In this document: piece after piece, positions 613-38,151 of the stretch
Position numbering within the stretch: the first letter of the stretch is position 1
Layout: each line of letters starts with the position of its first letter
Virus genome (UHGV): UHGV-0319989
Strand: one strand, 5' to 3'
DNA from: a virus
DNA: 38,413 bases
Notes under the pieces: generated by a model
The model's database searches: none
What the model was told of the DNA's origin: nothing
What the model saw: the letters and a program-made list of their open reading frames with translations, nothing else
Position numbers and translations under genes: made by a program

Positions 613-1557
613 ATGGATTTAATTATGGAATGGAGATTTTTAGGTTCTCTATCAGAGGCCAGGAAATCTGGCTGTAGCGGAGTTTATCTTATTGTCCATA
701 AAGGACTTTTCAGTCGTGTGGTTTACGTTGGGGTAAGTTGTAATGTAGGTAGAAGGATAACCGAACATTACGACGGTTATCTTAGAGGAAATCGAACAAT
801 TTACGACGCTGGTCACGACGAAGACGTTTATCGCTTCATGTCAGCTTATAAAATTCATAACCACACAAAATACTATCAAGCCTTGGCGAATGATTATAAG
901 ATATGGGCATCTACCACAATGTATTCTGATTTGCCGAAAAACATGCTAGCAAAAAGCCAAACCTTTGATACTGATTGGCAGAGCATTGCATTAGAAAAAT
1001 ATATTCCTCAACTGGTAGTATGGGCCCTTCCAATGGCAAAATACTGTTATTCAAATGCAAGCAGGATTGAAAGTGTAATCCAATCAAAGCTCATTAAATC
1101 TTTTGATTTGAGAGGTTTTTTTAATATAAAGCAATTAAGCATATTGGGTAAAATTGAATATCCCTATATGGAAAAGGTCAAAGTTTTCATTATTAACACA
1201 CCTGATTTAGACCCGGCATCCCAGCTTATTTTTAGCAATCTATATAACAAAAAAACTGATAACAACTTCTGTAAAGAGTTCCGTTCACAATTTAAAAGCG
1301 AGATTTTTCAGAGGGAAAGTGAAACTCAGAGAAAGCGAACTATTAGGGAGCATAAGGTATCTCTTTATGAAAATTATGGCAAGCCTTGGACTTTAAAGGA
1401 AATGGAAAAACTTAGAGTCATGCTTGTCGATTTTGATTTGTCCCCGACAGAAATATCTGAGTATCTAGGAAGAGAGCCGCGCTCTATATCTAAAAAAATA
1501 AGCGAAAATGATAAAGTTACTAATTATAAATGGCGAGAGAGCGTCGGCTGGTTGTGA
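613..1557 (+). CDS. Hypothetical protein with GIY-YIG-like N-terminal motif and C-terminal HTH-like motif (homing-endonuclease-like architecture)
   Basis: 314-aa ORF in strongly AT-rich DNA. N-terminus GVYLIVHKG...RVVYVGVSCNVGRRITEH resembles the GIY-(x10)-YIG...R...E/H nuclease motif; C-terminus KPWTLKEMEKLRVML...SPTEISEYLGREPRSISKKI resembles a WTxEE-type HTH. Start codon uncertain (613 or 625). Confidence 0.55.
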   Translation: MDLIMEWRFLGSLSEARKSGCSGVYLIVHKGLFSRVVYVGVSCNVGRRITEHYDGYLRGNRTIYDAGHDEDVYRFMSAYKIHNHTKYYQALANDYKIWASTTMYSDLPKNMLAKSQTFDTDWQSIALEKYIPQLVVWALPMAKYCYSNASRIESVIQSKLIKSFDLRGFFNIKQLSILGKIEYPYMEKVKVFIINTPDLDPASQLIFSNLYNKKTDNNFCKEFRSQFKSEIFQRESETQRKRTIREHKVSLYENYGKPWTLKEMEKLRVMLVDFDLSPTEISEYLGREPRSISKKISENDKVTNYKWRESVGWL

Positions 1558-1786: not shown

Positions 1787-1931
1787 AACTCCCGCCAGCT
1801 CCACCAATCATGATTGGACGGTGTAAGGACAACACCAACAAAAACAGGATGTTAGCAGTCTCAGCAGGACACCGACCAGACGGTGAGGAGACAAAAAAGG
1901 ATACGCAAAGGAGCCGCAGCTCCCGAGTGAT

Positions 1932-1961
1932 AAAAAAGCCCGCTTATGCGGGCTTTTTTTT
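1932..1961. terminator. Bidirectional rho-independent terminator
   Basis: AAAAAA-GCCCGC-TTAT-GCGGGC-TTTTTTTT: perfect 6-bp GC stem, 4-nt loop, A-run on one side and T-run on the other. Lies 10 bp beyond the stop of the minus-strand BRO-N gene. Confidence 0.8.
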
Positions 1962-1970
1962 CCCTCAAGC

Positions 1971-2732
1971 TCACTGACGTGTTCTTGCCTCAACTACTTT
2001 CTGGTATATAGCGATAGCTTCATCAACCAAAGCTAATGGATAGCAAGAATTTATATTCAATCCGGAGGGGCACTTAATTCTTTCTGCTCCACGTTCACTA
2101 CGCAATTTTTCACACCATTGCCAAAGCTCCTCAACCGAATAGGTATCCAAACCTAACTCCATCAATCGTTGAGGAACACTTCTGAACTGAGACAAATCTC
2201 TTAAACTTTCTAACGAGTTAACTTTTAGTTCAACTTGGTTTACTCTACTTTCTAACTCTTCACGTTTTTCTATTTCCATTACCAATGCTTGAACCGTCTG
2301 CTGCAGACTGTTAGCAAAAGCACTCAGTTCTGAACGTTCTTGCTTAGGTGGCGGAGGATATACACCAAATTCACGAATAGACGGAAGGACCTGATGAAAA
2401 AGCCAGCGTTGGAATTTTTTCCCCGCAGCAGTAGTATCCTGAGCAAGTACTCTATATAGACCTGGTTCAGTAAGAAATACCTCAGAGATAGTTTCACCAT
2501 CCACGACAAGAGAAACATTCCTAAACTCATCTGGATCTAAAGTTTTTATTACCGCTCTTATTACAGTGAGCAAGCTTTGAGAAGTCTTTCCATCCAGTTT
2601 TCTGTTCTCAGCAGAAAGCGTTCTTAGCACATCTGAAAGTGAAACAAAAATCTGCCCTTTTTCATTCATGCTACGGATATAATTTTCTCCACACTCTCCT
2701 TCGTAGCATAATTGTAACAAATTCTTTTGCAC
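1971..2732 (-). CDS. BRO-N domain protein (antirepressor-like)
   Basis: N-terminal region IFVSLSDVLRTLS...VVDGETISEVFLTEPGLYRVLAQD...KFQRWLFHQVLPSIREFGVY matches the BRO-N pattern (E.GLYRL..., VLP.IR..G.Y); C-terminal half is predicted coiled-coil. Confidence 0.55.
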   Translation of the reverse strand: MQKNLLQLCYEGECGENYIRSMNEKGQIFVSLSDVLRTLSAENRKLDGKTSQSLLTVIRAVIKTLDPDEFRNVSLVVDGETISEVFLTEPGLYRVLAQDTTAAGKKFQRWLFHQVLPSIREFGVYPPPPKQERSELSAFANSLQQTVQALVMEIEKREELESRVNQVELKVNSLESLRDLSQFRSVPQRLMELGLDTYSVEELWQWCEKLRSERGAERIKCPSGLNINSCYPLALVDEAIAIYQKVVEARTRQ

Positions 2733-3065
2733 GCCATCCCCTCCTTTTTTTATGGATTATACATCCTATAAACATGTTGTCACCGAAAGGGAAAAGCATA
2801 AACCCAATTTATGTTCCACAAGATGTTCAAAAATCAAACAACCATATAGCTGAGGAGCACAAAAGAGCAAAAGTTTACCAACCCCATATATCCATACAGC
2901 ACATACAATTGACACTACATATGGTATTTTTTAAGTTACGCCTTGCACCATTTCATGATTTTATGTAGATTGTCATCACACGCTGAGATTAAAAAATTCT
3001 ACAATTTTTGTTGATCTTGAGTTTGGTTTTTAGTATAAGTGAGCATGGATTGTAGGAGGCGCAAC

Positions 3066-3416
3066 ATGGTAACTAGCTTTGGTAAGACTCTCAGAAAAAT
3101 GAGAATAGACCGGGGTATGGTGCTCAAAAATATGGCTGATCTGTTAGGCGTTAGTTCGGCTTACTTATCCGCCATTGAATTAGGCAAAAGAGCTATACCG
3201 GACTCATTAGTAAATACGATTGCAACAACTTTTGAGCTTAGCGGACAAGACATCATCAATCTCAAGAAACAGGCAGAGATTTCTCAACCGTCCATTAAGG
3301 TTGATATGTCGGATGCAAATGAGCAGAACAAAGAACTAATGCTTGTTTTTGCTCGTAAATTTAAGGACCTGAGTCCAGAGCAACTCGATAAGCTTAATAA
3401 AATGTTAAAGGACTGA
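3066..3416 (+). CDS. XRE-family helix-turn-helix transcriptional regulator
   Basis: HTH MVLKNMADLLGVSSAYLSAIELGKRAIP. AGGAGG Shine-Dalgarno 6 nt upstream of the ATG at 3066 (the ORF-track start at 3039 lacks an RBS). Confidence 0.8.
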   Translation: MVTSFGKTLRKMRIDRGMVLKNMADLLGVSSAYLSAIELGKRAIPDSLVNTIATTFELSGQDIINLKKQAEISQPSIKVDMSDANEQNKELMLVFARKFKDLSPEQLDKLNKMLKD

Positions 3417-3419
3417 ATA

Positions 3420-3953
3420 ATGATTGCGAAACGAGAACTTGGCCATCGCGTTTCACCTCTCAGCACCAGCATGATTAAATCATACGCTCATCGTCTGAGA
3501 GACGTTCTTCAGATATCAAATCACACATATCTGAGACTGGATGTATTACTAGAAGGTCTTATGGCCTCAGAAAGCATTGAGCTAGAAATTGTTGAAGATC
3601 ATGAACTGCCCAAACGCTATGCAGTGACTTATCCAGATAAGAACAAAATTGTTTTACAGCGATCTGTTTACGATGCAGTGTGCAATGGTGAGAACCATGC
3701 GAGATTCACTGTTGCGCATGAACTTGGTCATTTAGTCATGCATCGCAATCAAAGTATCTATGCACGTAATAAGACTAGTGGAGGGCATAAAATCTATGAA
3801 GACAGCGAATGGCAAGCAGATGTTTTTGCAAGCCACTTCTTAATTGACTCAAGACTAGTTTTGCCCACAATGACTGTTGAAGATATAAGCAAAACATTTG
3901 GTGTCAGTCAACAAGCGGCTGAAACTTGGATGAGAAAAAATGCAAAAAGATAA
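3420..3953 (+). CDS. ImmA/IrrE-family (COG2856-like) zinc metallopeptidase
   Basis: HEXXH motif in FTVAHELGHLVMH with downstream E...SEWQADVFASHFL. ATG 3 nt after the XRE stop, so a coupled XRE-peptidase pair. Confidence 0.75.
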   Translation: MIAKRELGHRVSPLSTSMIKSYAHRLRDVLQISNHTYLRLDVLLEGLMASESIELEIVEDHELPKRYAVTYPDKNKIVLQRSVYDAVCNGENHARFTVAHELGHLVMHRNQSIYARNKTSGGHKIYEDSEWQADVFASHFLIDSRLVLPTMTVEDISKTFGVSQQAAETWMRKNAKR

Positions 3954-4078
3954 CGAAAAAGCCAGCGAACCGCTGTCGCTGGCTTCTCCTATCGTAAGCA
4001 AATACGAAAAACTTGGCGGTTGTGAGTATACGCTTACCTTAGGTTTTGTCAACAGCGAAACTTTACAGGTAACACGAT

Positions 4079-4222
4079 ATGACCATTGAAAAAGCTGTAT
4101 CTGAGGAATACATCACAATTTACCGTCCTTTTATTACGGTCAAAGGTAAACGGATCTTTGCTCGTCAAAAAGGCTTGGCAGCCTTTCCTATCAAAATTCC
4201 TGCCTCTAAGTATCGAGGATAA
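4079..4222 (+). CDS. Small ORF (47 aa), hypothetical, possibly a gene remnant
   Basis: ATG preceded by AGGTAA at good spacing; product MTIEKAVSEEYITIYRPFITVKGKRIFARQKGLAAFPIKIPASKYRG. Below the ORF-track length threshold; no family recognised. Confidence 0.25.
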   Translation: MTIEKAVSEEYITIYRPFITVKGKRIFARQKGLAAFPIKIPASKYRG

Positions 4223-4375
4223 TCTTTGCTAATCTTAGGCCCTTTTCTAGGGCCTTTTATTACACTTCTGTTACGCGCACCACAGATAGAGTTTCAGCTA
4301 AAACTTTTGTTCATACCTAGGAGTCTGCTGACGAGTGGTTTGTTCACTAATAAACACGTAAAAACGGTAACGGCT

Positions 4376-4458
4376 GGACATCATTCAATATTCGCACTAT
4401 TGGAAGTTCACCAGCCAGCCACAGCACGTTCTTGCATACAACGTGCCTGCGGTTTTTG
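4376..4458. repeat. Copy B of the ~80-bp hairpin-containing repeat (terminator-like 3' end)
   Basis: About 87% identical to 1706-1786; ends with imperfect stem GCACGTT...AACGTGC followed by TTTTT. Lies about 135 bp upstream of the GIY-YIG gene. Confidence 0.6.
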
Positions 4459-4547: not shown

Positions 4548-5417
<870 letters not shown>

Positions 5418-5437: not shown

Positions 5438-5478
5438 AACCGCAGCACGATCTTCTTGCATACGACGTGCTACGGTTT
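5438..5478. repeat. Copy C (short) of the hairpin repeat; likely bidirectional terminator between convergent genes
   Basis: AAA-CCGCAGCACG-(16-nt loop containing TTCTTGCATACGA)-CGTGCTACGG-TTT, a 9/10-bp stem between the GIY-YIG stop (5417) and the invertase stop (5478); shares the core with copies A and B. Confidence 0.55.
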
Positions 5479-6032
5479 CATTTATCTCCGACCGGAAACT
5501 TCTTATACAGTGTCGATATACCAACATCATAGATGATCGCCACCTTCTGGCGAGGAACGCCTGATGCAATTAATCGCCCGGCCTGCGCCCATTGTTCTGG
5601 TGTAAGTTTGGGACGACGTCCACCAATTCGTCCCTGTGCGCGAGCAGCTTCCAGTCCAGCTTTTGTTCGTTCAACAATCAGTTCTCGTTCCATTTCAGCC
5701 AGGGCACCCATCACATGAAAGAAAAAGCGCCCCATTGGGGTACTGGTATCAATTGAATCCGTCAGACTACGAAAGTTGATGCCTCGTTCGTGCAACTCCT
5801 CCACCAGCACGACAAGATGCCGCATACTGCGCCCCAGTCGGTCCAGTTTCCAGACCACCAGCGTGTCACCTGCCGATAATGTCCTGAGCAGCTTTTTCAG
5901 TCCTGGTCTGTCGGACTTTGTACCGCTTATCTTGTCTTCAAAAATCAGCTCACATCCTGCACAGTTCAGCGCATTACGTTGTAGATCTGTGTTCTGGTCA
6001 TTTGTTGACACACGTACATAGCCAATAAGCAT
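5478..6032 (-). CDS. Serine DNA invertase, Hin/Gin/Pin/Cin family (tail-fibre inversion recombinase)
   Basis: N-terminus MLIGYVRVSTNDQ (catalytic Ser motif), resolvase core, C-terminal HTH GVPRQKVAIIYDVGISTLYKKF. GGGAGA SD upstream of the ATG at 6030-6032. Adjacent to the invertible segment. Confidence 0.9.
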   Translation of the reverse strand: MLIGYVRVSTNDQNTDLQRNALNCAGCELIFEDKISGTKSDRPGLKKLLRTLSAGDTLVVWKLDRLGRSMRHLVVLVEELHERGINFRSLTDSIDTSTPMGRFFFHVMGALAEMERELIVERTKAGLEAARAQGRIGGRRPKLTPEQWAQAGRLIASGVPRQKVAIIYDVGISTLYKKFPVGDK

Positions 6033-6086
6033 GGTAGATCTCCCTGACAAAAGCAGGAATGGTGCCATTTGCTCGTTATTTCTGCA

Positions 6087-27239: not shown

Positions 27240-28292
27240 TTATTTCCCCACCAGTTCACTTACCTCTTTCACCGTCTGATTAAACCGCTCTGACTCAAGT
27301 TCAACACCTAACGCCCGACGCCCCAGCGCCATTGCTGCTTTTATTGTGGAACCGGATCCCATAAAGAAATCAGCAACCAGATCACCAGGTCGACTACTGG
27401 CATTGATTATTTGCCGGAGCATATCCGCCGGTTTCTCGCACGGATGTTTACCCGGGTAGAACTGAACGGGCTTATGCGTCCAGACATCGGTATAAGGCAC
27501 GGAGACTGATACGGAGAAATAGCGCCGGAGAGATTTAAACTCATCCAGCAATTCAGAATATTTGCGATTCAGTGAATCATAAGATGCCACCAGCTGGTGG
27601 TGTGGTTGTTCCAGTTGTTGTTCCTGAAACTTCTCTGCCGCTATACGGGAAAACAGTGCCTGTAACTTCCGATAGTCAGCCTCATTCGGCAACTGCCACT
27701 GACTGGCACCAAACCAGTGGGAAACCATATTTTTCTTACCTGTGGCTTCGGCAATTTGTTTTGCCGTTATACCCAGTTCGGCACGAGCATCCCTGAAATA
27801 CGATATCAGCGGTGCCATTATGTGCTGTTTGAGTTCCCTTTCTTTTGCCGCATAGCCGTCACTTTTGCCGCGATATGGCCCCTGGTAATGTTCAGCAAAC
27901 AGAACGCGCTCTGTGGCAGGAAAATATGCGCGCAGACTTTCTTTATTACACCCATTCCAACGTCCGGACGGCTTCGCCCAGATGATATGGTTAAGCACGT
28001 TGAAACGTTCACGCATCATGATCTCAATATCAGATGCCAGGCGATGCCCACAGAACAGGTAAAGGCTTCCGGCAGGTTTCAACACCCGCCAGAACTGGGC
28101 CAGACAGTGGTCCAGCCACTTAAGGTAATCTTCGTCCCCTTTCCACTGATTGTCCCAACCGTTGGGTTTCACCTTGAAGTAAGGCGGATCGGTAACAATC
28201 AGGTCAATGGAATCATCAGGCAGGGACTGAATAAAATGCAGGCAATCAGCGTTGATTAAATCAACACTGTTTATTTTTACAGTATTTTTCAT
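27240..28292 (-). CDS. Orphan DNA methyltransferase (N6-adenine / N4-cytosine class, DPPY motif)
   Basis: LIVTDPPY near the N-terminus, C-terminal AdoMet-binding FxGSGS; no adjacent restriction endonuclease gene seen. Confidence 0.8.
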   Translation of the reverse strand: MKNTVKINSVDLINADCLHFIQSLPDDSIDLIVTDPPYFKVKPNGWDNQWKGDEDYLKWLDHCLAQFWRVLKPAGSLYLFCGHRLASDIEIMMRERFNVLNHIIWAKPSGRWNGCNKESLRAYFPATERVLFAEHYQGPYRGKSDGYAAKERELKQHIMAPLISYFRDARAELGITAKQIAEATGKKNMVSHWFGASQWQLPNEADYRKLQALFSRIAAEKFQEQQLEQPHHQLVASYDSLNRKYSELLDEFKSLRRYFSVSVSVPYTDVWTHKPVQFYPGKHPCEKPADMLRQIINASSRPGDLVADFFMGSGSTIKAAMALGRRALGVELESERFNQTVKEVSELVGK

Positions 28293-32622: not shown

Positions 32623-33465
32623 TCAATGAACGGTATCGAGCAGCTTTAACAGCTCAGGGAATCGGGATTCGAAGAAATGCGGCTGCGTCTCGCGCGGATT
32701 TGCGGGACTGGTGATGTTCTTGCCGAACATGCAGCCTTTCGCTGTCAGCGACCAGAATTTTTTGATGTTGTTAATCGCGGTACGGCTGTATCGTTCGCGC
32801 TGCTCGACGATCCCCAGCTTCACCATCTGGTGATATGCCTGATTAGCCGTCAGGCAGATACCATACTGTTTCAGCAGTGCACTCAGTGACAGTGTCGGGC
32901 GACTTGAGCCATCGTGTGCATCAGCAGGAGCATCAATGGCATAGCGCGGTGCCAGATTCGGTAAGCCAACAGCCTCCTGGAGTTTCTGACAGGCACCAAG
33001 CACAGATGAGTTAGACAGGTTTAACTCCCGACGCATAAAGTCCAGCAGAATCACACCAGCCTGCATCTTGTCAGCAGCCTGTCCGGATAATTTTTCCGGT
33101 GCGCTGGTTACCATGTCGAAAGTACGGATCACCTTCAGATGGAATGACGGGCTGATCCACATTGCATAGGCATACACCAGTTCCTTGCAGACATAAGTTC
33201 CCCGTTCATTTCCCCCATGAATCACACTCACCGGGTCAACACCCAAATTCTGGGTGTTGGTCAATTCATGAACAAGTTCAACAGTTTGTTGGCTGGAAAG
33301 AAACTTTCCTGGCTCCTTGGTTCTGGCATTTGCACCAGATGCTACTGCTGCGCGATGCAGATCGTTCAGGCTGTAACGCCCATAAGCATCACGACGAACT
33401 TCAATACCATCAATGACCATCAGATTATTCATACTTCGTTTCTCCTCTTGCTCAGGCGGCTGCAC
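32623..33465 (-). CDS. KilA-N domain protein
   Basis: N-terminus MVIDGIEVRRDAYGRYSLNDLHRA...VCKELVYAYAMWISPSFHLKVIRTFD fits the KilA-N pattern; C-terminal domain unassigned. Confidence 0.55.
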   Translation of the reverse strand: MQPPEQEEKRSMNNLMVIDGIEVRRDAYGRYSLNDLHRAAVASGANARTKEPGKFLSSQQTVELVHELTNTQNLGVDPVSVIHGGNERGTYVCKELVYAYAMWISPSFHLKVIRTFDMVTSAPEKLSGQAADKMQAGVILLDFMRRELNLSNSSVLGACQKLQEAVGLPNLAPRYAIDAPADAHDGSSRPTLSLSALLKQYGICLTANQAYHQMVKLGIVEQRERYSRTAINNIKKFWSLTAKGCMFGKNITSPANPRETQPHFFESRFPELLKLLDTVH

Positions 33466-37476: not shown

Positions 37477-38151
37477 ATGAAAACAATCCATGACATCCGG
37501 CGGTCTAACGCCAGAAAACTGAGAGATGGTGTTGGCGGGAATTCTTCCTTTGCCACTATGATTGATCGCGAGCCAACCCAGACCAGCAGGTTTATGGGAG
37601 ATGGTGCTACTAAAAATATCGGTGACAGCATGGCACGACACATCGAAAAATGTTTCGACCTGCCTGTCGGATGGCTCGATCAAGAACACCAGACAACGAA
37701 CATCACAAAAAAACCTGATGTTTCAATCACTAATAAACAAATCACATTAGTCCCTGTCATATCATGGGTACAGGCCGGAGCATGGAAAGAAGTTGGATAT
37801 TCTGAGGTTGATTTGAGCACAGCAGAAACGTATCCCTGCCCTGTACCCTGTGGGGAAATGACTTATATCTTGCGGGTGATAGGTGATTCAATGATTGATG
37901 AGTACCGCCCGGGAGACATGATTTTTGTCGATCCTGAAGTACCTGCCTGCCACGGTGACGACGTTATTGCATTGATGCACGATACAGGCGAAACCACCTT
38001 CAAAAGGTTGATAGAAGATGGGACACAGCGTTATCTCAAAGCGTTAAACCCAAACTGGCCTGAGCCTTACATTAAGATCAACGGTAATTGCTCTATAATT
38101 GGTACAGTGATTTTCTCAGGAAAACCAAGAAGATACAAAATCAAAGCCTAA
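37477..38151 (+). CDS. cI: CI-like prophage repressor with LexA/S24 autopeptidase domain
   Basis: N-terminal HTH-like region; C-terminal S24 domain with VIGDSM (catalytic Ser) and downstream Lys; weak SD, consistent with a leaderless PRM-type transcript. Confidence 0.75.
   Translation: MKTIHDIRRSNARKLRDGVGGNSSFATMIDREPTQTSRFMGDGATKNIGDSMARHIEKCFDLPVGWLDQEHQTTNITKKPDVSITNKQITLVPVISWVQAGAWKEVGYSEVDLSTAETYPCPVPCGEMTYILRVIGDSMIDEYRPGDMIFVDPEVPACHGDDVIALMHDTGETTFKRLIEDGTQRYLKALNPNWPEPYIKINGNCSIIGTVIFSGKPRRYKIKA

Follow-up and report, generated by a model that had tools for sequence, protein, structure and literature searches.

A putative self-contained XRE/M78-peptidase cassette with a microprotein gene and a predicted antisense RNA at a prophage end

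The XRE repressor and ImmA-type peptidase genes of the viral genome UHGV-0319989 belong, with a probability that we put at roughly 0.55, to a mobile cassette that is complete in itself and spans some 1.25 kb (positions 2997-4255 of the 38,413-nt stretch analysed here, the window). The same estimate applies to its composition, which would be an XRE protein that represses its own promoter, a short M78 peptidase, a small RNA in cis-antisense orientation and a basic 47-aa microprotein with a beta fold, and to the output of the switch, which would be the microprotein, expressed from a protease-released repressor and held behind an extra gate by the antisense RNA. The cassette may function as a toxin or in defence.

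Organisation of the locus

A sequence-only reading had described positions 1971-3953 as a BRO-N gene divergent from an XRE/peptidase pair, and its three open reading frames are borne out (BRO-N at 1971-2732, minus strand; XRE at 3066-3416 and ImmA at 3420-3953, plus strand). The plus-strand genes lie where that reading put them, but its interval ends too soon, as the unit runs on to a terminator at 4237-4255. The features of the locus are these:

613-1557: variable slot gene
1925-1966, minus strand: hairpin flanked by A and T runs, directly 3' of the BRO-N stop, the likely BRO-N terminator, bidirectional in form
1971-2732, minus strand: BRO-N domain gene, 253 aa (Pfam Bro-N, PHROG 'Ant' families)
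2756-2783, minus strand: sigma-70-like promoter-like site for BRO-N (GTGACA, 16 nt, TATAAT; 11/12 matches)
2997-3015, plus strand: operator-like dyad (TTCTACA-N5-TGTTGAT) that overlaps the XRE -35, from sequence comparison
3011-3039, plus strand: probable XRE promoter, read from the sequence (-35 TTGATC, 17 nt, -10 TATAAG)
3066-3416, plus strand: XRE-family HTH repressor, 116 aa (HTH_19, HTH_31, HTH_3; PADLOC capH)
3420-3953, plus strand: short M78 (ImmA/IrrE/CapP-type) zinc peptidase, 177 aa (Pfam Peptidase_M78, E=2.8e-11)
3940-4089, plus strand: 'o49', a RefSeq hypothetical protein, open reading frame overlapping the antisense RNA region
3945-4018, minus strand: predicted antisense small RNA of ~75 nt with a U tail (terminator-like site, fold, conservation)
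4025-4052, minus strand: promoter-like site of the antisense RNA, from a promoter scan (TTGACA, 16 nt, TATACT; 11/12 matches)
4079-4222, plus strand: 47-aa basic microprotein, net charge +7, third conserved cassette protein
4237-4255, plus strand: terminator-like hairpin and T run, closing the plus-strand unit ahead of PD-T4-3
4641-5417: PD-T4-3

The intergenic distance between BRO-N and XRE is 333 bp, and 3 nt separate the XRE stop from the ImmA start. The cassette lies between PD-T4-3 and the variable slot, which is occupied in other strains by retron Ec48, an S1 peptidase or an AAA ATPase. Inside the cassette unit there are no excisionase, integrase or lytic genes and no LexA box, the single CTGT-N8-ACAG match of the window being at 28267. 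Neither Rfam at gathering thresholds nor ARAGORN finds RNA genes in the window. A mini-island bounded by tmRNA fragments was considered and rejected: on alignment, only 1779-1806 of the 107-nt direct repeats corresponds to the ssrA 3' end, and the remainder is a different repeated element.

In the earlier reading the pair is distinct from the main cI/cro switch, which lies near 37.2-38.2 kb. This stands, and the latter switch is real. Its cI-like protein (37477-38151) carries a Peptidase_S24 domain; because cI has this self-cleavage domain, an antirepressor is not needed for the main prophage repressor, and a second prophage-induction circuit, though possible, becomes unnecessary. Such a circuit also fits poorly with the cassette copies found outside prophages.

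The XRE repressor and its promoter

RefSeq relatives annotate XRE as 3066-3416, with GGAGG 6 nt 5' of the ATG; a GTG start at 3039 was discarded as an over-extended reading frame. The PADLOC capH model matches at 1.2e-10 and covers residues 3-115. The C-terminal extension is CapH-like, with a conserved FAR motif (F95-A96-R97) in a family alignment of 72 sequences. The TTGA and TATAA portions of the promoter are kept among relatives, and a strict promoter scan misses the site, the final base of its -10 being G. The half-sites of the dyad co-vary while its position is kept (TTCAACA..TGTTGAA in loci L018 and L033, TTCTACA..TGTAGA in L036), and a scan allowing up to 2 mismatches finds the dyad only once in the 38-kb window. 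For an XRE operator shared with the DNA before the microprotein gene, shared k-mers (7.9 vs 7.7 in the cross-locus control) show no excess.

A short M78 peptidase without a GAF domain

ImmA consists of the peptidase domain and a small helical domain. The HEXXH zinc site is intact and the third ligand present, and H100, E101, H104 and E130 are invariant across 28 homologues, down to 33% identity. PADLOC capP matches at 5e-15, CapP (7T5T, E=2.8e-13) comes first among solved relatives, and an AF2 model (pLDDT 92) has IrrE/PprI as its best fold matches. The earlier assignment of the pair to the ImmR/ImmA kind, an XRE protein with a COG2856/M78 HEXXH peptidase, a kind that also takes in CapH/CapP and DdrO/IrrE, agrees with PADLOC, with 7T5T and with the IrrE fold match. 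The GAF domain is absent from the 177-aa protein, which aligns to residues 81-181 alone of the 291 of CapP.

A third conserved protein

The 47-aa protein is predicted to form a four-strand beta fold and has no hydrophobic stretch. Its family comprises 780 clusters at 50% identity, with no annotation. Codon changes in the gene (13-22 synonymous vs 3-9 non-synonymous) indicate strong purifying selection on the sequence. In a sample of one locus per species (80 loci), a profile search places a same-strand microprotein gene 3' of ImmA in 46; a variant motif occurs in about 20 further loci and a zinc-ribbon variant in 2, which brings the gene, in all variants, to about 68 of the 80 species, the kinship of the main and RFRFGRWE variants being judged by eye only. 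Searches that start from the microprotein lead back to XRE and M78 genes in Acinetobacter, Phenylobacterium and two metagenomic contigs. Comparison with known toxins and folds gave no resemblance and no fold match, and among the best 150 of 780 family representatives there is no informative domain fusion, to the peptidase or otherwise. The microprotein appears to be a previously overlooked third protein of the cassette, passed over by gene callers and domain databases. Most likely, on this analysis, it would be a nucleic-acid-binding effector that arrests growth or interferes with phage.

An antisense RNA candidate

Between ImmA and the microprotein gene, the minus strand would encode a small RNA complementary to the mRNA stretch that links the two. 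Its 3' end is a 14-bp terminator hairpin (3955-3989), and its predicted fold has an energy of -26.8 kcal/mol (z=-3.5). Both promoter hexamers are invariant in 8 enterobacterial relatives, and the region is 85-99% identical where the flanking genes are 68-80% identical; in two unrelated lineages, enterobacterial and Acinetobacter, no other DNA in the module is as well conserved. Complete promoter-terminator units are found in the ImmA-microprotein gap on the minus strand of 20 of 76 species loci (26%) and on the plus strand of none, against 0.35 of 76 expected from dinucleotide shuffles. The gap also holds 27 terminator-like and 29 promoter-like sites on the minus strand, vs 4 and 6 on the plus strand. 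[quoted passage not shown] Rfam returned chance-level hits alone for the RNA, and a leader element on the plus strand is another possible reason why the gap is so well conserved. In Serratia the hairpin has a plus-strand T run as well, so the microprotein gene may be poorly co-transcribed with ImmA there.

The annotated o49 overlaps this region. Its frame is shifted in LLS, L015 and L016 and missing in L017, and in Serratia its relation to the frame of the 47-aa gene differs; judged by its sequence it is probably no real gene, since the antisense RNA would be encoded there. A role for o49 as a mok-like leader peptide was set aside because the reading frame is not conserved. Likewise, the sole plus-strand promoter-like site ahead of the microprotein gene, within the 3' end of ImmA (3844-3871), is not conserved among relatives and was rejected as an internal promoter.

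Distribution of the cassette

XRE immediately precedes ImmA in 71 of 76 species loci, an adjacency that spans Proteobacteria, Clostridia, Bacteroidota, Synergistota and Victivallales. Among the 74 upstream and 68 downstream neighbouring genes of the 80 species (142 in all), no neighbour family recurs beyond pairs. The position of the cassette differs among prophages (at the tail-fibre end, in the nin region, beside Q), and it is also found at a non-prophage chromosomal site. Of 5426 E. coli genomes, 36 carry it, and no match was found on plasmids.

BRO-N and other possible partners of the switch

What, then, does the switch control? The sequence-only reading paired it with BRO-N: XRE would repress the divergent BRO-N gene, ImmA would cut XRE on a signal, and BRO-N would inactivate a phage repressor, giving a second circuit for induction or anti-repression. 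The two genes are indeed divergent, the protein matches PHROG 'Ant' families besides Pfam Bro-N (PF02498, E=2.4e-7, 31.7 bits vs a curated cut-off of 25.6), and recurrent Xre-Bro pairs have been described (PMC2701414). Both BRO-N and the cassette are found in the E. coli, Salmonella-type and LLS elements; in enterobacteria they move jointly from one phage type to another, with the spacer conserved in part, and a second cassette lineage adjoins BRO-N at locus L141. Against this, BRO-N has its own promoter, about 230 bp from that of XRE, whose two hexamers are kept in alignment with the Salmonella-type and LLS relatives where the intergenic DNA around them is not; near it there is neither a LexA box nor a copy of the dyad, which lies on the XRE promoter alone. 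At L141 the different XRE/ImmA triad is co-directional, in tandem with BRO-N rather than divergent from it. Of 28 viral loci with BRO-N homologues (66-81% identity), 17 have unrelated cargo in place of the cassette, the majority of cassette copies lie away from any BRO-N gene, and in strain ET670 an IS interrupts BRO-N and leaves the cassette intact. The BRO-N protein also lacks a C-terminal ANT/KilAC domain or any second Pfam domain, a PDB search gave no informative relative, and the S24 domain of cI weighs in the same direction. The pairing is thus improbable as a functional unit. BRO-N is a separate gene outside the XRE/ImmA cassette, a conserved border gene of such prophage ends, followed by the likely terminator hairpin (inverted repeat I3: 19-nt arms, 4-nt loop, 89% complementary), and the cassette is one among many interchangeable cargoes next to it, in a hotspot that also takes PD-T4-3, retron Ec48, UmuDC-like genes, HicAB and others. 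Given the joint travel in enterobacteria and the L141 lineage, a looser functional link may exist.

Control of neighbouring defence cargo had also been suggested, and in a CapH/CapP-type regulator XRE would repress PD-T4-3 or the slot gene, with ImmA relieving repression after DNA damage. The top HMM and solved-structure matches are CapH and CapP, and the cassette is flanked by PD-T4-3 and the variable slot. Yet a terminator after the 47-aa gene precedes PD-T4-3, the window holds no second operator, PD-T4-3 is not beside the relatives outside E. coli (Salmonella-type, Serratia, Providencia and Acinetobacter loci, phage LLS), and the 80 species share no conserved neighbour; the peptidase has no GAF domain, and no operon of several genes lies divergent from the cassette (bioRxiv 10.64898/2026.05.16.725639), so that this control is very improbable. 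A two-protein TA system, with the M78 peptidase as toxin, XRE as antitoxin and the microprotein and RNA as accessory or irrelevant, would suit the antitoxin-first order with its 3-nt spacing and the mobile, patchy occurrence in E. coli. Xre-COG2856 was predicted as a TA pair (PMC2701414), and a Brucella ZnMP/Xre pair has been described as a TA system (PMC10538038). However, the characterised relatives ImmA, IrrE, CapP and RmrA are proteases that cleave repressors, or antitoxins, and do not serve as toxins (PMC10440598), and a near-universal selected microprotein gene and a conserved antisense unit are left unexplained, which makes this reading improbable too. Somewhat less remote, and still unlikely, is a microprotein that serves as cofactor of the switch, either a nucleic-acid sensor that replaces the GAF domain and activates ImmA or an ImmA inhibitor, with XRE acting on targets elsewhere in the genome. 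The peptidase does lack the ssDNA-sensing GAF domain of CapP and IrrE, a basic, beta-rich protein is compatible with nucleic-acid binding, and the microprotein is always found with the peptidase clade of ImmA. A cofactor would not obviously need antisense-RNA gating, though, the window holds no other operator, and the best 150 of the 780 family representatives include no microprotein-peptidase fusion. The reading retained here is that the microprotein is the output of the switch.

Proposed mechanism

In the reading with the microprotein as output, XRE dimers would hold the plus-strand transcript low by binding the dyad that is observed over the -35 of their own promoter. A trigger, which could be DNA damage or infection, would lead the peptidase to cut XRE, probably in its C-terminal part near the FAR motif, as modelled on CapP/CapH, IrrE/DdrO and ImmA/ImmR. 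The derepressed transcript would then pass the hairpin after ImmA and read through into the microprotein gene. The antisense RNA, strongly promoted, would pair with the leader about 60-135 nt 5' of the microprotein start, and antisense transcription might also run convergently into the operon. Basal transcripts would be silenced in this way, and protein would be made only from a burst of transcription.

A broader claim may be put forward tentatively, as one that we consider possible but doubtful: that the cassette represents a previously undescribed and widespread four-part system, in which a private SOS-like XRE/M78 switch is joined to a type I TA pair with a new family of ~45-aa soluble basic beta-fold microproteins, carried by prophages and islands as a module that arrests growth or acts against phage when infection or damage triggers it. 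A literature search on ImmA/XRE systems with type I TA or antisense RNA found nothing describing such an arrangement.

Comparison with known systems

ImmR/ImmA of the Bacillus subtilis element ICEBs1 and, in temperate phages of Gram-positive bacteria, the cI-like repressor/metalloprotease pairs resemble the cassette in placing an XRE repressor next to a COG2856/M78 HEXXH peptidase that is short (~170 aa) and has no GAF domain. Further common points are an autoregulated promoter, in the cassette a predicted one, and carriage by mobile elements. However, ImmR drives excision and transfer genes from a divergent promoter, by an integrase, whereas the dyad of the cassette is on its own promoter only. 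Cassette sites are also varied and some are non-prophage, and ICEBs1 has neither the microprotein gene nor the antisense RNA.

CapH/CapP, which regulate CBASS and other defence operons, and DdrO/IrrE of Deinococcus are the closest relatives in sequence and structure (PADLOC; PDB 7T5T; IrrE 3DTI), with the same HTH and C-terminal dimerisation-type extension and the same catalytic His-Glu-His-Glu set. In the published domain map of CapP, the C-terminal GAF domain forms the ssDNA-sensing groove (bioRxiv 10.64898/2026.05.16.725639). CapP and IrrE, at about 290 aa, have this GAF domain forming an ssDNA-binding groove, whereas the window peptidase stops where CapP reaches residue ~181-186. A switch loop with a cysteine is present in many CapP proteins, and the corresponding loop here is without cysteine. 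CapH/CapP lie divergently upstream of multi-gene defence operons, unlike the cassette pair, which has no conserved neighbour.

RosmerTA likewise combines an HTH, an M78 peptidase and a small unrelated partner in a mobile prophage-borne module, with phage-borne examples; RosmerTA and the idea of a three-component XRE/COG2856/toxin system have both been set out (PMC10440598; PMC2701414). Both cassette proteins match models of its antitoxin RmrA, XRE on the N-terminus and ImmA on the peptidase part, and on this analysis the cassette can be seen as a split RosmerTA. RmrA, however, is a single fusion of 360-400 aa that extends into a further C-terminal region, where the cassette has two genes. The cassette partner (41-60 aa, soluble, basic) is unlike the described RmrT toxins, and an antisense RNA is not known for Rosmer.

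With tisB/istR-1, symE/symR and dinQ/agrB the cassette would share a small protein gene under a repressor-controlled, damage-type promoter, and an opposite-strand, strongly promoted RNA complementary to the 5' leader well before the start codon. The SOS-controlled pairs use LexA/RecA and a stand-alone small-gene transcript, whereas the cassette would use a private XRE with its own protease and has its small gene third in an operon, of a family unrelated to any known type I toxin. Most type I toxins are small hydrophobic membrane peptides, unlike the soluble, basic microprotein. SymE and RalR are soluble exceptions among them, and SymE in particular is similar in being a soluble protein and not a membrane peptide.

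The immI region of P22 (mnt, arc, ant), Tum of phage 186 and GfoA of Gifsy recall the layout of the window, with a BRO-N/Ant-like gene at a prophage end and a small repressor alongside, outside the main immunity region. Such LexA-controlled or immI-type antirepressors differ in that the window has no shared operator, ANT/KilAC domain or LexA box and a cI that is self-cleaving. In the window, moreover, BRO-N stays put and the adjoining cargo swaps.

Significance

Pairs of XRE and M78-peptidase genes are among the commonest unexplained gene pairs of phages and islands. A prediction of 2009 placed them in three-component systems, with the third member then missing for most of them. For one large clade this third member appears to be an unannotated 780-cluster microprotein family (clusters at 50% identity) together with a conserved antisense RNA, both of them missed by gene callers and domain databases. 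If the proposed reading is true, it would correct the annotation of the 'o49' hypothetical protein and of BRO-N as an antirepressor partner. The cassette would then also be a compact case of protein control by a protease and repressor layered over antisense-RNA control of a single tiny effector, and the repertoire of toxins and defence would gain a soluble microprotein effector of a new kind.

Gene content of the block

The three genes named by the sequence-only reading, a BRO-N gene divergent from an XRE repressor and an ImmA-type peptidase, all exist. The main cI/cro switch that it placed at 37.2-38.2 kb is also real, with a cI-like protein (37477-38151) that carries a Peptidase_S24 domain. 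The block contains the following features:

1971-2732, minus strand: BRO-N gene, 253 aa; passes the Pfam Bro-N threshold (E=2.4e-7) and matches PHROG "anti-repressor" families
2783-2756, minus strand: BRO-N promoter-like site, GTGACA-16 nt-TATAAT; hexamers kept in relatives
2997-3015: operator-like dyad over the XRE -35, TTCWACA-N5-TGTWGAA; common to relatives
3066-3416, plus strand: XRE gene, 116 aa; matches HTH_19, HTH_31 and HTH_3
3420-3953, plus strand: ImmA gene, 177 aa; matches Peptidase_M78 (E=2.8e-11)

The XRE start is the RefSeq start of identical copies, with GGAGG 6 nt 5' of it. In ImmA, residues H100, E101, H104 and E130 show no variation among 28 homologues, at identities down to 33%. 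Its AlphaFold model (pLDDT 92) has IrrE/PprI as the best fold match, and the nearest solved structure by sequence is CapP (7T5T, E=2.8e-13). At the domain level the two form an ordinary XRE/M78 protease-repressor pair. No second recognisable domain was found in BRO-N. The prophage encodes a second BRO/KilA-type protein in its early region, a KilA-N domain protein of 280 aa (32623-33465, minus strand).

BRO-N as a border gene

Is BRO-N the partner of XRE and ImmA, as their divergent arrangement had suggested? The evidence speaks against such a partnership. BRO-N has a promoter-like site of its own, ~230 bp from the XRE promoter, and outside the hexamers its side of the spacer is not conserved in relatives. 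When searched for across the window, the dyad is a single site (2997-3015), with none at the BRO-N promoter, PD-T4-3 or elsewhere. Its half-sites co-vary, with a perfect TTCAACA..TGTTGAA in Serratia and in the related locus L018, and TTCTACA..TGTAGA in Providencia. The module contains no LexA box; the sole perfect LexA-box-like CTGT-N8-ACAG of the window (28267-28282) lies at the 5' end of a DNA methylase gene (27240-28292, minus strand).

BRO-N and XRE/ImmA are also found apart. XRE/ImmA genes are absent from 17 of the 28 viral contigs with BRO-N homologues (66-81% identity), and close to BRO-N in loci of this kind are UmuDC-like, UmuD-like, DinI-like, HicAB, VapBC-like or SRAP-like genes, labels given by eye on the basis of translations. 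On one of the contigs (L141), BRO-N is co-directional with another XRE/ImmA lineage (40% and 33% identity). BRO-N in turn is absent beside the XRE/ImmA relatives of Serratia (nin region), Providencia (beside Q) and many other genomes, and in E. coli ET670 it is split by an insertion sequence (IS), with the rest of the block intact. Given its own promoter, the sole dyad at XRE, the loci without the cassette and the ET670 insertion, BRO-N is therefore a conserved border gene of such prophage ends, and the adjoining position is a cargo hotspot.

A microprotein and a predicted antisense RNA accompany XRE and ImmA

Scanning one genome per species with the invariant motif EDSEWQA[DN] yielded 80 loci from Gamma-, Beta- and Alphaproteobacteria, Clostridia, Bacteroidota, Synergistota and Victivallales, with XRE directly 5' of ImmA in 71 of the 76 callable loci. 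In the 142 flanking genes (74 upstream, 68 downstream), recurrence of a neighbour family is limited to pairs from near-duplicate genomes. The suggestion that XRE/ImmA regulates neighbouring defence cargo is thus not supported, with neither a recurrent flanking family nor a dyad at PD-T4-3. The 3' part of the cassette contains:

3989-3955, minus strand: 14-bp hairpin, ~30 nt past the predicted antisense start, with a U-rich tail behind
4052-4025, minus strand: antisense promoter-like site, TTGACA (4052-4047), 16 nt, TATACT (4030-4025); matches 11 of 12 positions
4079-4222, plus strand: microprotein gene, 47 aa, basic
4237-4255, plus strand: terminator 3' of the microprotein gene

An iterative profile search for the microprotein returned 84 matches among 26,091 open segments of the loci, all on the ImmA strand just 3' of ImmA, covering 46 of the 80 species loci. 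A small ORF with the motif V.V..Y.RFRFGRWE.V..H.RS.P occupies the same place in ~20 further loci and looks like a variant of the pattern, the homology of variants being judged by eye; two loci have a zinc-ribbon version. Reverse look-ups from the microprotein led to Acinetobacter, Phenylobacterium and two metagenomic contigs, every copy 3' of an XRE protein (116-122 aa) and an M78 peptidase (166-179 aa); the one in Phenylobacterium is flanked by carD and ccdAB, outside any prophage. The family numbers 432 proteins at E<1e-3 in a 90%-clustered database and 780 clusters in a 50%-clustered library. Among the matches listed, members are stand-alone proteins of 41-128 aa, except one repeat-rich match of 945 aa, and those that are named are all called hypothetical. 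No Pfam or NCBIfam model was found for the family; some variants match two PHROGs of unknown function.

Five Acinetobacter loci (L119, L121, L125-L127) have a conserved run of small genes 3' of the cassette (169, 76, 85, 83, 90 and 103 aa, the last being DUF1889). The slot 5' of it varies (P22_AR_N antirepressor, SDH protease/NfeD, AAA_16, DUF6714), and Arc/Arc/BRO-N sets lie ~3 kb from the cassette in Acinetobacter prophages.

Between ImmA and the microprotein gene, an antisense RNA of ~75 nt is predicted (fold z=-3.5), with no Rfam family match. Eight enterobacterial relatives show no change in either hexamer, in the start region or in the terminator stem, and their antisense stretch is 85-99% identical, whereas identity is 68-80% for XRE, ImmA and the microprotein gene. 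In Acinetobacter the gap, unrelated in sequence to that of the window, is 95-97% identical, against 70-71% for ImmA and 78% for the microprotein gene. Across loci, terminator-like sites in the gap favour the minus strand over the plus strand (27 loci versus 4), as do promoter-like sites (29 versus 6). Of 76 species loci, 20 have a complete minus-strand unit, defined as a promoter followed 30-170 nt on by a terminator inside the 240 nt after ImmA, and none has one on the plus strand (0.35 expected from dinucleotide shuffles). The units have a median predicted length of 97 nt, with the terminator adjoining the ImmA stop codon.

The 49-aa "hypothetical protein" annotated here by RefSeq (o49, 3940-4089, plus strand) overlaps the predicted antisense RNA, is frameshifted in phage LLS and two related loci (L015, L016), is absent from a third (L017) and has another frame relation in Serratia; judged from sequence, it is probably a mis-annotation and not a gene. 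The sole plus-strand promoter candidate before the microprotein gene (3844-3871) is not kept in relatives, so transcription of the microprotein mRNA most likely begins at the XRE promoter and runs across the antisense gene. There is a strong case that the cassette consists of four conserved parts and is independent of BRO-N.

Setting of the prophage end

The prophage that makes up the window combines a Mu-like baseplate with lambda-like regulation. Behind its tail-fibre/invertase end (pinE, 5478-6068) comes low-GC cargo (35-44% GC), which includes:

613-1557, plus strand: 314-aa protein; no significant family match, weak N-terminal GIY-YIG-like matches
4641-5417, plus strand: PD-T4-3, a LEM-3-like GIY-YIG protein and known anti-phage system (PADLOC 2e-140, PHROG 5356)

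The block is present in just 36 of 5426 complete E. coli genomes. In E. coli FDAARGOS_1373 it immediately adjoins the tmRNA gene ssrA; in LZSFT34 it occupies another chromosomal site, beside a LysR pseudogene near paoD, and retron Ec48 fills the slot of gene 613-1557. Since the isolated phage LLS carries it between attP and its invertase (76% DNA identity), the block is packaged phage DNA. In prophage ends that are otherwise identical, the slot of gene 613-1557 varies and can contain retron Ec48, an S1 peptidase or an AAA ATPase, which makes the gene a candidate for defence.

PD-T4-3 forms its own cassette 3' of the block, between the XRE/ImmA module and the invertase. Three direct repeats (1679-1785 and 4349-4455, 107 nt at 84% identity, and a 28-nt partial copy at 5442-5469) each end one cargo cassette, namely gene 613-1557, the BRO/XRE/ImmA block and PD-T4-3. 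The element is normally found right after the stop codon of the pin invertase, and the copies resemble scars left by recombination, or sites where cassettes dock for exchange. At 1779-1806, 28 nt reproduce the ssrA 3' end and are followed by the DNA found downstream of the real ssrA in FDAARGOS_1373; this is a relic attachment site now inside the element.

Elsewhere, two plus-strand genes amid minus-strand phage genes (28882-31271), encoding a 388-aa homologue of the NA37 nucleoid-associated protein and a 408-aa protein without family, may be a further moron or defence pair. An ORF starting MTKNTRFSPEVRQRAIRMV (38329-38413, plus strand) continues past the window end and, read by eye, resembles the beginning of orfA of an IS3-family transposase.

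Proposed mechanism and known systems

We propose the following mechanism with moderate confidence. XRE would bind the dyad and shut down its own operon until the M78 peptidase, once triggered, cuts it, by analogy with ImmA/ImmR, IrrE/DdrO and CapP/CapH. Within the C-terminal part of XRE, the strongly conserved FAR motif (F95-A96-R97) marks a candidate cleavage region, because CapH is cut at F82/R83 (bioRxiv 10.64898/2026.05.16.725639). Upon derepression, transcription would pass the hairpin and enter the microprotein gene. About 60-135 nt 5' of the microprotein start codon, the leader could base-pair with the antisense RNA, which is predicted to be transcribed convergently into the operon and would keep basal transcripts silent. 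The microprotein would then be the output of the switch. It may be toxic, phage-blocking or regulatory, and the case for any one biological role is weak. Independent IS insertions among only 36 E. coli carriers (IS1203 in XRE of EC02, L129; ISEc52 in BRO-N of ET670, L130; an IS3-family element at the ImmA/47-aa gene junction of LZSFT34, L003) may hint, anecdotally, at a cost.

In CapP and IrrE a GAF domain helps to form the groove that senses ssDNA, whereas the ImmA of the window lacks this domain and ends at the equivalent of CapP residue ~181-186. The cassette is not a CapH/CapP system, with the GAF domain absent and no neighbouring operon under control, nor an ICEBs1-type element switch, as no excision or lytic genes are controlled by XRE/ImmA. 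It looks like a split RosmerTA (PMC10440598), but differs from RosmerTA as defined in that the antitoxin is split into two genes and the partner protein is different. Makarova et al. (PMC2701414) put forward a three-component XRE/COG2856/toxin idea, and the cassette is in keeping with it. In the literature searched, no description was found of an XRE/ImmA pair that comes with both an antisense RNA and a conserved microprotein. The tisB/istR-1 and symE/symR loci are SOS-controlled type I pairs. The proposed geometry and logic of the cassette match theirs, with the difference that a private repressor and protease replace LexA/RecA.
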